From NCBI RefSeq assembly GCF_044324875.1, contig NZ_CP172185.1: 64,000 nucleotides of DNA; one strand, given 5' to 3'. The position numbers were made by a program. Each line of letters opens with the position of its first letter. Position 1 is the first letter of the stretch. Shown piece after piece: positions 43,601 through 49,600 of the stretch. This DNA comes from Escherichia coli. Lineage in GTDB: Bacteria; Pseudomonadota; Gammaproteobacteria; Enterobacterales; Enterobacteriaceae.

Positions 43601-46600
43601 GGCGGATGTGCGTAAAATTGATACTAATCTCTACCGGGCACGCCTCAGTATCCGGGATCGGTTGTTGTTTTCACTTTACCGTTACCGTGGTGAGACGGTC
43701 TGCCTGGTACTGGAATATCTGCGTAACCATGCTTACCACACGTCACGTTTTCTGCGCAGGAATGTGGTGATCGACGAGGCGCGGCTGCAGCTGCAACCGG
43801 TGCCGGATCCGGCAGATGCAGACGCCGGTACACTGACGTATCTCAACCCCACTCACGGGCGTTTTCACTACCTGGATAAAATGCTCTCTTTTGATGATGA
43901 CCAGCAGGCGCTGTATGAACATCCGATGCCACTGGTGATTGTCGGCTCCGCCGGCAGCGGAAAGACGGCACTGTTACTGGAGAAAATGAAGCAGGCCGGG
44001 GGCGATATTCTGTATCTCAGCCTTTCGTCATTTCTGGTGGAAAAAGCCCGCACACTCTATCACGCATCTGGTGAAGAACATGACGGGCAGACCATTGATT
44101 TTCTGTCGCTGAGCGAGTTTCTGGAAACCCTGCGCATTCCGGAAGGGCGGGAGGTGACGTTCAGTGCGTTCAGCAACTGGCTGCCCCGCAACCGGACCAC
44201 CGCTGCACTGGGCTCTGGCCATACCCTGTATGAGGAATTTCGTGGTGTCATTGGTGCCGTTGCTTCTGACAACGGACCGCTGTCCCGGGAGGCGTATCTG
44301 TCGCTGGGAGTACGTCAGTCACTTTATGATATGGATGACCGTCCGGCGGTTTACGCCCTGTTTGAGCGTTATGTTGCATGGCTGAAACAGTCGCGTCAGT
44401 ATGACAGTAATCTTCTCAGCCACCAGTACCTGCCACTGGCCGGGCACCGTTATGATGTGGTTTTTGTGGATGAAGTGCAGGATATGACGCCTGTGCAGCT
44501 GCGGCTGGTTCTGAAAACCCTGCGTCATCCCGGTCAGTTTGTACTCTGCGGCGATGCCAATCAGATAGTTCATCCCAGCTTTTTTCCTGGAGTGCCCTCA
44601 AAAGCCTCTTTTTCCGGCAGCAACAGAACGAGGCTGCCGTGAATATTCTGCAGGCGAATTACCGTAACGGGCACCATGTCACCGCACTGGCTAACCGGCT
44701 GCTCAGACTTAAACTGGCCCGGTTCAGTGCCATTGACCGGGAAAGTCACCATTTTGTCAGAAGCTGCGGGCAGACGGAAGGCACCATCAGGCTGCTGGAA
44801 GACCGGGAAGCCACCCGCCATGAGCTGAACAGCAAAACCTCCCGCTCAAACCGTGTGGCGGTGATTGTGATGCAGCCGGAGCAGAAAGCACAGGCCCGGC
44901 GCTGGTTCAGTACACCGCTGGTTTTTTCGGTTCAGGAAGTGAAGGGGCTCGAGTACGAAACGGTGATCCTGTACAACATGGTCAGCAGTACCCGTAAGGC
45001 ATTTGATGATATCTGCGAAGGGATCAATCCGGCAGATCCTGAGGGTGAGGTGCGTTATGCCCACCCCCGGGACCGGCAGGATCGTTCAGCAGAAATCTAC
45101 AGGTTTTTCACCAACGCGCTGTATGTTGCGCTCACCCGTGCCACGCACAACGTGTACCTTGTTGAGCAGGAGGTGGCCCATCCGCTGTGGTCCCTGCTGG
45201 CCCTCACGCATCATGAAACGCAACTGGAGCTGCAGGAAGAGATTTCCAGCCGTGATGAGTGGCAGAAAACCGCTCACCTGCTGGAAAAACAGGGGAAGCA
45301 GGAGCAGGTGGACACCATCCGCAGTATGATCCTGCAGGAGTCAGAAGTACCGTGGCAGATCTTCAGCGCAGAGGATGCGCGGCAGTGGAAACAGCAGATC
45401 CTCAGCGGGACGGCGGACAAAGCCACGAAACTGCAGGCGCTGGAATACAGCCTGATTTATTCCCTGTTTCCGCTGTATAATGCGCTGTACCGGGAAGATT
45501 TTAAGCCCACAAGGCAGCCCCGGACCCGGAGCCAGCAGTTACTGGAGCAGAAGTATTTTCGTCCCTACTCAGTGAATAATCCGGTCGCCGTGCTGAGGGA
45601 TATTGAACGTTATGGTGTTGATCACCGCTCGCCGTTTAATCTTACGCCGCTGATGCTGGCAGCCCGGGCGGGGAACACGGCGCTGGTTCAGTTGCTGCTG
45701 GATCGTGGTGCCGATCCCACGCTGACGGCAAATGACGGGCTGGCGGCGTATCATCATGTTCTGTCAGCGGCGGTCAGCACGCCCCGTTATGCGCAGCAGA
45801 AGGGGGCACAACTCTATGCCTTGCCGGGACCGGAAAGCCTGTCACTGCAGGTGGAAGGGCGGCTTGTCAAACTGGACAACCGGCAGATGGCAATGTTTCT
45901 GGTGATCCTGATGCAGGCATTGTTTTACACGCATCTGGGGAATGCTCTGGTTTTTTCAGAAGCCTTCAGTGCGGCACGACTGGCAGAGTGTGTCGCCCAC
46001 TTTCCTGAAGCCCTGCTGCCGGAACGCCGCAGGCGGAGGAATTATATCAGCAGCCAGCTTTCTCAGCATGAAGTTAACAGCAAGAACCCTTATGGAAAAA
46101 AGCTGTTTCTGCGACTGAGGCATGGTCAGTATATTCTTAATCCGGGGCTGAAAATCAGGCAGAATGACGGGTGGTACCCGGTTTACGACTTGCAGTCACC
46201 GGAAGATCTCGGTCATGATTTACAGACGTATCTGCAGGACATGCCCCCGTACATTCTGGAGATTCTGGGGGGCAGGAAGGATGTTTACGAACAAAGTAAG
46301 GGGTCTGTCGGATACTGGGTGGCGATGATCCGCCGTCACAGTGGTGAGCCGTAATGTTCCGCACTGCGCGGATATCCTGAAACATGTTCTGTTAATGTTA
46401 CCTGGTTCAGAAGAGATAAACAGTGAGCAGCAGGAAAGAGAAAAATACGCCCACGCCGCATGATGCCGCCTTCAGGGCGTTTATGGCCTCAGCAGAGGTG
46501 GCCCGTGATTTTGTTGAACTGCATCTTCCGGCGGAATACCGGCAGTTGTGTGATCTGTCGACGCTGCGGCTGGAGCCCTGTACCTTTGTGGACCAGGATC

Positions 46601-49600
46601 TGAAACAGTATGCGTGCGATGCGCTGTTCAGCATGAAGACCGTCAGCGGTGAGGAGGGGTATATTTATTGCCTCGCGGAACACCAGAGTACGGAAAACGC
46701 GTTTATGGCGTTCAGGATGCTCAGATATGCGGTGGCGGCGATGCAGCGTCACTTTGAACAGCACCATGAGCTGCCGCTGGTGATCCCGCTGTTATTCTAC
46801 CACGGTGAGCGGAGCCCGTACCCGTACAGCATGAACTGGCTGGAGTGTTTCAGAAATCCGGAACTTGCTGCTAAAATCTACACCAGACCGTTCCACCTGG
46901 TGGACGTGACGGTACTGGATGACGATGAGATAATGCAACACCGCCGAATGGGGGCACTGACGCTGCTGATGAAACACAGCCGCAGCCGCGACATCATGCT
47001 GCAGATGGACAGGCTGGTTCAGCTGATACAGACTTCACTGAATGAAGAGCTGGCGAAGGCTCTGTTCCACTATCTGCTGAACGGCAGTGAACATGTGACG
47101 GTAAGGTTTTTGCAGACGCTGGCGGAGCGGCTGCCACAGCATGAGGGCAACATAATGACACTGGCTGAACAACTGAAGCAGGAAGGGGAAGTCAAGGGAT
47201 TTGAGCGCGGTATTGCCCAGGGTATGGAGCGCGGTAAGCTAGAAGGCAGAATGGAAGGCAGAATGGAAGGCCGTGCCGAAGGGCGACTCGAAGGACAACT
47301 GGAAGGCAAACTGGAAACGGCGCGTAATATGTTGGCTGAAGGAATGGGGCTTCAGACCATCATGAAAATCACGGGATTGAGTGAAGAACAGCTGAAAAAA
47401 ATCAGCCACTGAAGCATTGAGGCGTGATGTATAGCACGCCTCGTTCTGTCTGACAGTATTTTGTTTCCTGTGTATTTGGTCGTTTCAGGTCAACCTTTGT
47501 CGGGAGCCTGGCGTTGGTACCTGCTGAGGAAAGAGGGAACTGGACGCAGAGTGACAGTCTGCGAATTGCAGGAAGAGGATGCGAAAGTGTTCGCTTCTTC
47601 CATTGTGTCCCTGATTTAAATTCGGATACTCAAATCTGAAGCGGTGACTCGTATACGTGTGAGTCACCGGGACTACCGCTTGAGTGATGAAAAATAGTCG
47701 TGTTAACGCAAAGCTGAAGTGACACATCTTATTTCAGCGAATGCGTTTGACCGCCTTACTATACACTTTTGAGCATTCTCTTTTCCTGACGGAAACCACG
47801 AAGACGACAATCTTCTCGTCTATAACCTGATATACAAGGCAAAAAACCGTCAAGAGCAGGAGCAGGCGGTCCGCCAGACAGTCCATTGCATAAGGCTATC
47901 AGCTATATCCTGAAACGACCTGATGAGCTGTGCCGTTTTCTGGATGATGGCTCTGTGCCACCGGACAACAATATCTGCGAACGAGCCATCCGCCCGGTCA
48001 CGCTGGGGCGAAAGGCATGGTTATTCGCAGGCTCGCTGATGGCCGGCAAACGCGCGGCACAGATAATGAGTCTTCTGGAAACAGCAAAGCGTAATGGTCT
48101 GGAGCCACATGCCTGGCTGACGGACGTACTGACGCGCCTGCCGGAGTGGCCTGAGGACCGACTGGCTGAGCTGCTGCCTCTTGAGGGATTTACCTTCTCC
48201 GGGTGACACAACACCTGCCGTCAGGTCTTTGCACACCGGGCCATGGCCTGCTGTCGGGCGTTGAGCGCCTGACAGCGGGTTATTGAGAAAGTCAGTCACC
48301 ATGCGCCTGGCTGACAGTCAGGACCTGCACGTCAGCGCCTCCCTTACCCTGGTCAGGACTTCACTGCCTGCCACAAACTCCCGTGTCAGTACTTCGCGGC
48401 CTGACGCGCTCACCCTACTCAGTCCTTCAGAGCCCGCCTCCGGTACCTGGCAAGGCAGACGCCGGGGCGCAATAAAATAAATCAACCATCGCAGGGCGGC
48501 GATCATTCGCAACAACCGCTGATGACGAGCCCAGAAACGTGTCAAGACGATTTCACCGGAACCGTTTACCCCAAGCAGAGCGGCAATAGATCCGCCTGGT
48601 ACTGTGAAGGATGCATCGCGCAGTGCTTTCTGCCCGTTTCGCCAGGTGACAGTAACGCCATTAACGACAATACCCGCAGATTGCATCATTACTTCTCCCT
48701 TTTCCCGGCTTTAATTCCCTGCACCAGCGTACTGGTAGTAACCTTCAGAAGGTCGATATACGTAGGTACCGGGCCGTTTTCTGTGCTCAGGGAATCGACA
48801 TAGAGCACACCGCCGTAGTGTGCGCCGGTTTCACGCGCAACCTGACGCGCTGGTTTATCGGAAACCGTACTCTCACTAAATACCGCTGGGATATTATTTT
48901 TCTTCACTATATCAACCACTTTACGTACCTGCTGGGGTGTTCCTTGTTGATCGGCATTTATCGGCCACAGATAAAGCTCTTTTAGCCCCAAATCGCGTGC
49001 GAGATAAGAAAAAGCCCCTTCACTGGTGACCATCCATCTTTTATTCTCAGGGAGTTCAGCAATCTGCTTACGCAGGGGGGCAAGGGTTTGGGTAATCTTG
49101 GCTTTATAAGTATCGGCATTACGTTGGTATGTTTTTGCATTTGCCGGATCGTATTTTATCAACGCATCGCGAATATTATCGACGTAAATCAAAGCATTAT
49201 CTGGCGACATCCAGGCATGAGGGTTAGGTTTTCCCTCGTAGGGGCCTTCGGTGATCCCTACTGGCGTCACACCCGAAGAGACAATCACTTCTGGAACACC
49301 ACTGAGATGCTGGTAAAAGCGCTGGAACCACAATTCCAGATTCATACCGTTGGCGAGAATCAGTTGTGCCCCCTGCGCACGTTTAATATCGCCAGGGGTA
49401 GGCTGATACTCATGAATTTCTGCACCGGGCCTGGTTATGGATGAGACTTCTGCAGCATCTCCAGCCACGTTTTTGGCCATATCTGCGATGATGGTAAATG
49501 TTGTAATGACCTTGAATTTTTCAGTTGCACTCGCCTGAAATGCTATCGAGCAGGTGAGGGCGAGGCACCCCAGGAGCATGGTTACTTTTTTTATTGAGTG

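Follow-up and report, generated by a model that had tools for sequence, protein, structure and literature searches.

Background

In Escherichia coli K-12, all five rpn genes make a small protein, RpnS, from a start inside the gene for the full-length nuclease, RpnL, and so does a homologue from C. difficile (Zhong et al., PNAS 2023, PMC10400941). RpnS forms a complex with its cognate RpnL and prevents the latter from inhibiting growth, inducing the SOS response and cleaving DNA; moreover, RpnA-S was lost when the ribosome-binding site and the M244 ATG of rpnA were mutated (PMC10400941). As for the nuclease itself, mutants of RpnA at D11, D63, E82, Q84, R94 and D165 showed abolished or altered activity, the D11 mutation abolishing it (Kingston et al., J Bacteriol 2017, PMC5350276). 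An anti-phage effect has been reported only for the plasmid-borne RpnP2 of ECOR13, and a literature search returned no work on RpnS/RpnL later than the 2023 paper and its commentary. Here we analyzed a further rpn gene, which lies in a stretch of 64,000 nucleotides (nt) of an E. coli chromosome (contig NZ_CP172185.1; hereafter the window, to which all coordinates refer unless another source is named). This gene is very probably an intact member of the RpnL/RpnS gene-within-a-gene toxin-antitoxin family: every feature of membership that can be looked for in a sequence was found, except that internal promoter-like sites were no more frequent than in shuffled sequence.

Results and discussion

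An intact Rpn nuclease gene with a GTG start

The gene is one uninterrupted frame of 329 codons on the plus strand (46423-47412), with GTG as its first codon and a TGA ending at 47412. An earlier note, made from the sequence alone, had given the same coordinates, start included, and they hold. GTG 46423 is the sole start codon upstream of the conserved TPHDAxF motif, an in-frame TAA (46417-46419) stands two codons 5' of it, and no other start retains D14, the counterpart of the essential RpnA D11; thus GTG 46423 is the correct start. At the site homologous to the weak AAGAG that precedes it, the rpn gene of Eco889 has the stronger AAGGGAG. For the identical gene in strain LH50-c (NZ_CP100500.1), RefSeq places the start at ATG 46483 (309 amino acids (aa), WP_215199838.1), which is too far downstream, as it deletes the TPHDAxF motif together with the catalytic Asp equivalent to RpnA D11. 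In the L002 and L003 alleles, two of the closest relatives of the gene, the RefSeq start is the GTG.

Three complete genomes of chicken origin share the region at 100% identity, and the exact 329-aa protein is found on 329 public contigs, where it is called 'Rpn family recombination-promoting nuclease/putative transposase [E. coli]'. The gene is publicly annotated as Rpn family already, and none of the annotations seen records an internal product. Open reading frames (ORFs) on the minus strand across rpn (e.g., 47070-47309) are reverse complements of its repeats, and Rfam and tRNA scans gave no match within or close to the gene.

That the product is an Rpn-family nuclease, as the earlier note had also proposed, was borne out by two models: Pfam PF04754 (Transposase_31/YhgA-like) matched residues 11-207 with an E-value of 6.5e-74, and NCBIfam TIGR01784 ('Rpn family') scored 175.7 bits against a cut-off of 52.1. 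The NCBIfam equivalog models for RpnA and PRK09956 reached ~303 bits, below their cut-offs of 583, and K-12 RpnA, B, C and E were 43-49% identical to the window protein. Thus the gene encodes a distinct Rpn paralogue rather than one of those named in K-12. By alignment, D14, D66, E86, Q88, R98 and D168 correspond to RpnA D11, D63, E82, Q84, R94 and D165 respectively, and all six are invariant in alignments of 8 and of 43 sequences; judged by these residues, the nuclease part looks intact, with its active site kept.

An AlphaFold2 (AF2) model (mean predicted local distance difference test, pLDDT, of 70) has an alpha/beta core followed by helices. A Foldseek search with the whole model returned nothing at E <= 0.001, and its weak matches were mostly PD-(D/E)XK nucleases (Nt.BspD6I, PaqCI and McrC), so that the fold assignment leans mainly on the sequence family. 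PADLOC-DB 2.0 holds no Rpn model, and the Rpn protein drew from it only a 15-bit match to a 'putative invertase'.

The older names of the family, 'putative transposase' and 'ISNCY family transposase', would instead make the gene the transposase of a mobile element. Such names survive in Pfam and NCBIfam, and the gene does lie on the border of an island, among insertion sequence (IS) fragments; yet it scores 303.6 bits against the cut-off of 583 for the ISNCY/PRK09956 equivalog, its flanks vary between alleles, and homology between alleles stops at the start codon rather than at defined element ends. Moreover, the published analysis of the family found no terminal inverted repeats, target-site duplications or autonomous PD-(D/E)XK transposase (PMC10400941). 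A transposase is thus scarcely conceivable.

A conserved, probable internal start with a constrained ribosome-binding site

The internal Met to which the earlier note had pointed, ahead of the C-terminal domain, is M245 (ATG 47155-47157), where the peptide MTLAEQLKQEGEVKG starts. It occupies the same alignment column as RpnA M244, the experimentally proven internal start, and Met is kept in this column in 42 of 43 homologues, with T246 and A248 invariant; in the 8-sequence alignment the whole motif M-T-(L/I)-A is invariant. The codons preceding M245 are CAT GAG GGC AAC ATA, and the GAGGG that they contain has a predicted anti-Shine-Dalgarno pairing of -6.1 kcal/mol, the strongest among the 30 in-frame start-capable codons of the ORF and better than that of the site before the GTG start (-2.9 kcal/mol, predicted).

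Comparison with homologues extends this observation. K-12 rpnA-E have AAGGAG or GGGAG at the equivalent position, and 18 distinct homologues, 13 of them on viral or prophage contigs, have a Shine-Dalgarno sequence at the same position (mean pairing -9.4 kcal/mol, against a background of -1.8). Furthermore, codon choice there is strongly skewed: among 19 distinct genes, Glu codons within the Shine-Dalgarno window are GAG in 27 cases and GAA in one, while elsewhere in the same 19 ORFs the counts are 136 GAG and 263 GAA (Fisher p 2e-11). Such a bias reflects selection at the level of nucleotides rather than of the protein, and the window gene conforms to it. As support for an internal start, this comparative evidence is a stronger argument than the pairing strength of the single site.

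Repeats and tail of the predicted small protein

Initiation at M245 would yield an RpnS of 85 aa, predicted to consist of MTLAEQLKQEG, nine four-residue units and a conserved tail, QLEGKLETARNMLAEGMGLQTIMKITGLSEEQLKKISH. The C-terminal EGRxEG repeat described in the earlier note was recovered by Tandem Repeats Finder as arrays of 12-nt period at 47203-47316, including a perfect 2.5-copy unit, GAAGGCAGAATG, at 47242-47271. In described systems the four-residue repeats lie in the first helix of RpnS, begin 8-20 residues after the Met and differ in number from strain to strain (PMC10400941), and the onset of the array at RpnS residue 12 falls inside that range. Compared with the 49-aa RpnA-S, the predicted RpnS has nine more four-residue repeats. 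Indeed tails counted from the internal Met (49, 53, 57 ... 85 aa) follow 49+4n in 40 of the 43 homologues in the alignment; K-12 RpnC (59 aa), K-12 RpnE (56 aa) and the Leu-start homologue P0046 do not, and two homologues on prophage contigs are likewise off this series. The 85-aa tail of the window gene is at the long end of the homologues sampled.

Among the alleles compared, the N-terminal 244 residues are 97-99% identical and it is the number or content of repeats that varies: L002 (strain Br_112) has six EGRM units against two in the window allele (+4), L004 has fewer repeat units, and L003 differs in the first units. The L002 protein also ends differently (...KKSATEALRRDV, from L002 7140-7182 of strain Br_112_kylling, where the window has ...KKISH). 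This altered end resembles a 1-nt change in the A-run before the stop, which could be genuine or an artifact of sequencing.

The repeat region is modeled by AF2 as a long helix (238-278 and 285-305) with low confidence at 273-291. Against the Protein Data Bank, phmmer found 7th0_A, the RpnA-S crystal structure with its C-terminal three-helix-bundle fold, with an E-value of 0.0062. Foldseek superposed the model on 7th0 at a target-normalized template modeling score of 0.79 and a root-mean-square deviation of 0.6 A over 38 columns with 47% identity, a match that covers the last ~40 residues only and comes from a model of moderate confidence (mean pLDDT 70). In a Pfam search with the C-terminal fragment alone, DUF4351/PF14261 was not matched and HTH_7 appeared only below its cut-off, a weak similarity that agrees with a published HHpred remark (PMC10400941). 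In the precomputed annotations of homologues P0001-P0120, PF27070.1 is present on almost every full-length Rpn protein and absent from truncated ones; it was not reported for the window protein in the Pfam search, and may model the C-terminal region.

Taken together, the homology of M245, the constrained Shine-Dalgarno sequence, the variable repeats and the match to 7TH0 (Table 1) support an internally started small protein, as the earlier note had suggested.

The EGRM repeats supply two further in-frame ATGs, M277 and M281 (47251-47265), each after GGAAGG. M281 has a predicted anti-Shine-Dalgarno pairing of -5.5 kcal/mol and, of all in-frame ATGs in the ORF, is the one predicted to be most accessible; initiation at M281 would yield a product of 49 aa, as long as RpnA-S. 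The Br_112 allele would have four more such sites.

Table 1 Features of the rpn locus and its upstream neighbor, in window coordinates
Feature	Coordinates	Strand	Remarks
rpnL, full-length Rpn-family nuclease ORF (putative toxin)	46423..47412	+	329 aa, GTG start, TGA stop; PF04754, TIGR01784
N-terminal PD-(D/E)XK / Transposase_31 nuclease domain	46453..47043	+	residues 11-207; D14, D66, E86, Q88, R98, D168
rpnS, predicted in-frame internal ORF (putative antitoxin)	47155..47412	+	85 aa from M245
Shine-Dalgarno-like GAGGG	47143..47147	+	GAGG core ends 8 nt, full GAGGG 7 nt, before ATG 47155
Four-residue / 12-nt repeat array	47188..47316	+	EVKG FERG IAQG MERG KLEG RMEG RMEG RAEG RLEG ...; starts at RpnS residue 12
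C-terminal helical core of predicted RpnS	47284..47403	+	residues 288-327; matches RpnA-S crystal structure 7TH0
Weak Shine-Dalgarno-like AAGAG	46411..46415	+	7 nt before GTG 46423
Candidate internal promoter	46906..46934	+	GTGACG, 17 nt, TG-n-GATAAT; within conserved VDVTV...DDEIM coding stretch
Terminator-like stem-loop	47418..47443	+	6 nt past stop; 9-bp stem, 6 GC pairs, weak T tail
UvrD-like helicase with ankyrin repeat, split by -1 frameshift	43509..46354	+	Pfam UvrD, Ank; neighboring gene

Expression and the possibility of a single product

All K-12 rpn genes have an internal transcription start, the coordinates of which are not stated (Zhong et al., PMC10400941). In the window gene, the -10 hexamer of the candidate internal promoter, GATAAT (46929-46934), is formed by the codons GAG ATA ATG (E-I-M) of the conserved DDEIM, and this -10-like hexamer may mark an internal promoter. 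As side observations, conserved E-I-M codons necessarily give R-A-T-H-A-T, which is -10-like, and in window-type alleles the Ile is encoded by the rare ATA, giving GATAAT or AATAAT with TG before it.

Several results weigh against a gene within a gene at this locus: i) ATGs that pair as well as the M245 site or better make up 6.7% of all ATGs in the window, and its pairing strength is therefore not rare taken alone; ii) pairing at the homologous sites averages -9.4 kcal/mol, and in the set compared it is poorest in the window allele (-6.1) and in its Eco889 relative (-5.9); iii) the mRNA around ATG 47155 is predicted to be of average accessibility (53rd percentile of ORF positions), which is thus uninformative either way; iv) two promoter-like sites were found in the gene (46849-46877 and, the better one, 46906-46934) against 1.2 +/- 1.4 in shuffled sequences, which is not above chance; v) a consensus scan of the interval from the helicase to the GTG gave no -35/-10 site, and the native 5' flank upstream of rpn in the helicase-free L003 and L004 alleles has here been replaced by the helicase module, so that expression of RpnL in the window strain is uncertain; vi) translation, toxicity and defence are inferred by homology.

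The first four of these would also suit a nuclease made as a single product, in which the repeats and helical C-terminus act only in cis (in dimerization or regulation), M245 is structural and little or no small protein is made. However, this allele retains the Met, its spacing and the GAGG core, the GAG over GAA excess (27:1 vs 136:263) reflects a constraint on nucleotides that would not arise from a structural role of the protein alone, and RpnS is made by all five K-12 paralogues and by the C. difficile homologue tested (PMC10400941). A single product is thus unlikely.

How the two products would work together

In an RpnL/RpnS system of the published kind, translation from GTG 46423 would produce RpnL, a PD-(D/E)XK DNA endonuclease whose C-terminal third would form a long four-residue-repeat helix and then a small helical bundle. 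Ribosomes starting at ATG 47155, probably on a shorter mRNA from an intragenic promoter, would produce an RpnS identical to the C-terminus of RpnL. RpnS would bind RpnL via the shared repeat helix and, by analogy with RpnA, a 2:2 tetramer may hold the nuclease inactive, with the repeat number deciding which RpnS fits which RpnL. Once released, for example on phage infection, RpnL would cut DNA and limit the spread of the phage at a cost to the cell. From the experiments on the K-12 systems and plasmid RpnP2, we infer that the locus would share their separate translation of RpnS, toxicity of RpnL, neutralization by RpnS and anti-phage activity.

The upstream helicase and the island

An island that carries an integrase and is rich in toxin-antitoxin and anti-restriction genes (integrase, ParDE, CbtA/YeeU, RadC, an anti-restriction gene, YeeP, Gp2, YfjI and AlpA) has the rpn gene at its far end. 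The earlier note had placed Rpn next to a helicase: the two genes do adjoin, with a gap of 68 nt, but the helicase is a frameshifted pseudogene and not a consistent Rpn partner. Alignment with intact 949-aa homologues locates a -1 frameshift beside a T-run near 44586, leaving the two helicase ORFs 43509-44642 and 44639-46354, and RefSeq marks the helicase of the identical strain as a frameshifted pseudogene. The helicase family is widespread (~950 aa), with members ~50% identical in Endozoicomonas, Halomonas and Nitrococcus.

The same order recurs outside the window: Eco889 has an intact helicase followed by Rpn, and so does EC958 except that its rpn is cut by IS21. Thus it occurs in two E. 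coli lineages, one comprising three window-identical genomes and the other ~92 Eco889/EC958-type genomes. Between them the helicases are ~83% identical in DNA and the 60-68 nt spacer is alignable (homologous, though diverged); given the shared junction and spacer, the pair was inherited together in the two lineages. Such conservation, along with the weak GajB-like matches of the helicase in PADLOC, would fit a two-gene helicase-nuclease module comparable to Gabija (GajA/GajB) or Hachiman (HamA/HamB), with Rpn as the surviving half of a decayed system. Yet the closest Rpn alleles (L002-L004, 97-99% identical) have no helicase, none of the five loci inspected that hold a helicase homologue, in other E. 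coli, Salmonella and Enterobacter, has an Rpn gene beside it, each gene is found broken with the other intact (the helicase frameshifted here, rpn cut by IS21 in EC958), and the Rpn systems characterized so far work without a helicase. The chance that the gene is half of such a module is thus very slim.

Helicase without Rpn is found at loci L010, L013 and L015-L018. The helicase as a general, conserved partner of Rpn was rejected on the ten loci examined, where each gene also occurs alone. We concluded that islands of this type carry helicase and rpn as interchangeable cargo at their far end.

Between helicase-linked and helicase-free alleles (window 46355-46425 against L003 7883-8006), homology ends no more than a few bases from the start codon, and their 5' flanks are therefore unrelated. 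At the start, L003 and L004 have ATGACGGTG and the window has TAAACAGTG.

A slim chance, estimated jointly, is left for two further readings, of which the second is the smaller. In the first, some islands would carry an inherited helicase-Rpn defence module: the order and spacer are common to lineages ~15% diverged, the helicase would modulate or target RpnL, and the window copy would be half-decayed. In the second, the Met-containing EGRM repeats after GGAAGG could act as nested starts, giving a ladder of RpnS isoforms with differing helix lengths.

On the 3' side of rpn, 47734-48206 holds a minus-strand remnant of a RelE/StbE toxin and a C-terminal fragment of an IS66 transposase (PF03050, PF13817), beyond which come a sitB remnant and then sitA; in strain 23CRST013 rpn is directly abutted by a RelE gene that is longer and frameshifted. 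Elsewhere in the window, a full-length Rfam match to the ALIL pseudoknot (RF01497, 116 bits), the frameshift element of the IS3 family, lies at 33631-33747 on the plus strand, in a stretch that carries no annotated feature in the identical RefSeq genome.

Implications

The gene-within-a-gene arrangement itself has been known since 2023, and as a further, uncharacterized example of it the window gene adds little that is new. Read as an RpnL/RpnS member, it would extend the published arrangement to a paralogue that is absent from K-12 and lies on an E. coli island, and whose repeat helix ranks with the longest in the homologues sampled. On the other hand, the GAG over GAA bias offers independent support, from sequence only, for an internal start across the family, and could help to find such starts elsewhere. 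Moreover, the window and Br_112 alleles, with two and six EGRM units, form a natural pair for the published rule that repeat number sets specificity.

Comparison with known systems

The closest described relative in arrangement is K-12 RpnA (YhgA). Like it, the window protein has a PF04754 PD-(D/E)XK domain in which the tested catalytic residues are all kept, and an internal Met in the same column (M244 in RpnA, M245 here) with a Shine-Dalgarno sequence at equal distance; the C-terminal helical core, moreover, is like that of RpnA-S (7TH0), being 47% identical and superposed at 0.6 A. However, overall identity to RpnA is 49% and the score is under the RpnA equivalog cut-off (303 vs 583 bits), the predicted RpnS is 85 aa long rather than 49, and the Shine-Dalgarno is GAGG in place of AAGGAG. 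Furthermore, K-12 rpnA lies between feoC and bioH, whereas the window gene has a GTG start and lies in a horizontally acquired island.

K-12 RpnC and RpnE belong to the same family and have the same internal start, but they are accompanied by separate small genes (rpnCSs; ypaA/rpnESs) and DUF4351. The window gene has no DUF4351 match and no stand-alone RpnS-like ORF downstream, where a terminator-like hairpin is followed by the RelE and IS66 remnants. Unlike Gabija-type pairs, helicase and nuclease here show no obligate co-occurrence: Rpn is alone in L002-L004, and the helicase also occurs alone.

Outside its own alleles, the gene is most closely related to plasmid and island copies (60-80% identity); among the plasmid-borne homologues compared, the nearest are 63-80% identical. 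Rpn proteins encoded on plasmids of Enterobacteriaceae, a group to which RpnP2 belongs, share with the window copy the LPQHE(D/G)xxMT(L/I)A junction and repeats of the GRMEGRMEG type, but the window copy is chromosomal.

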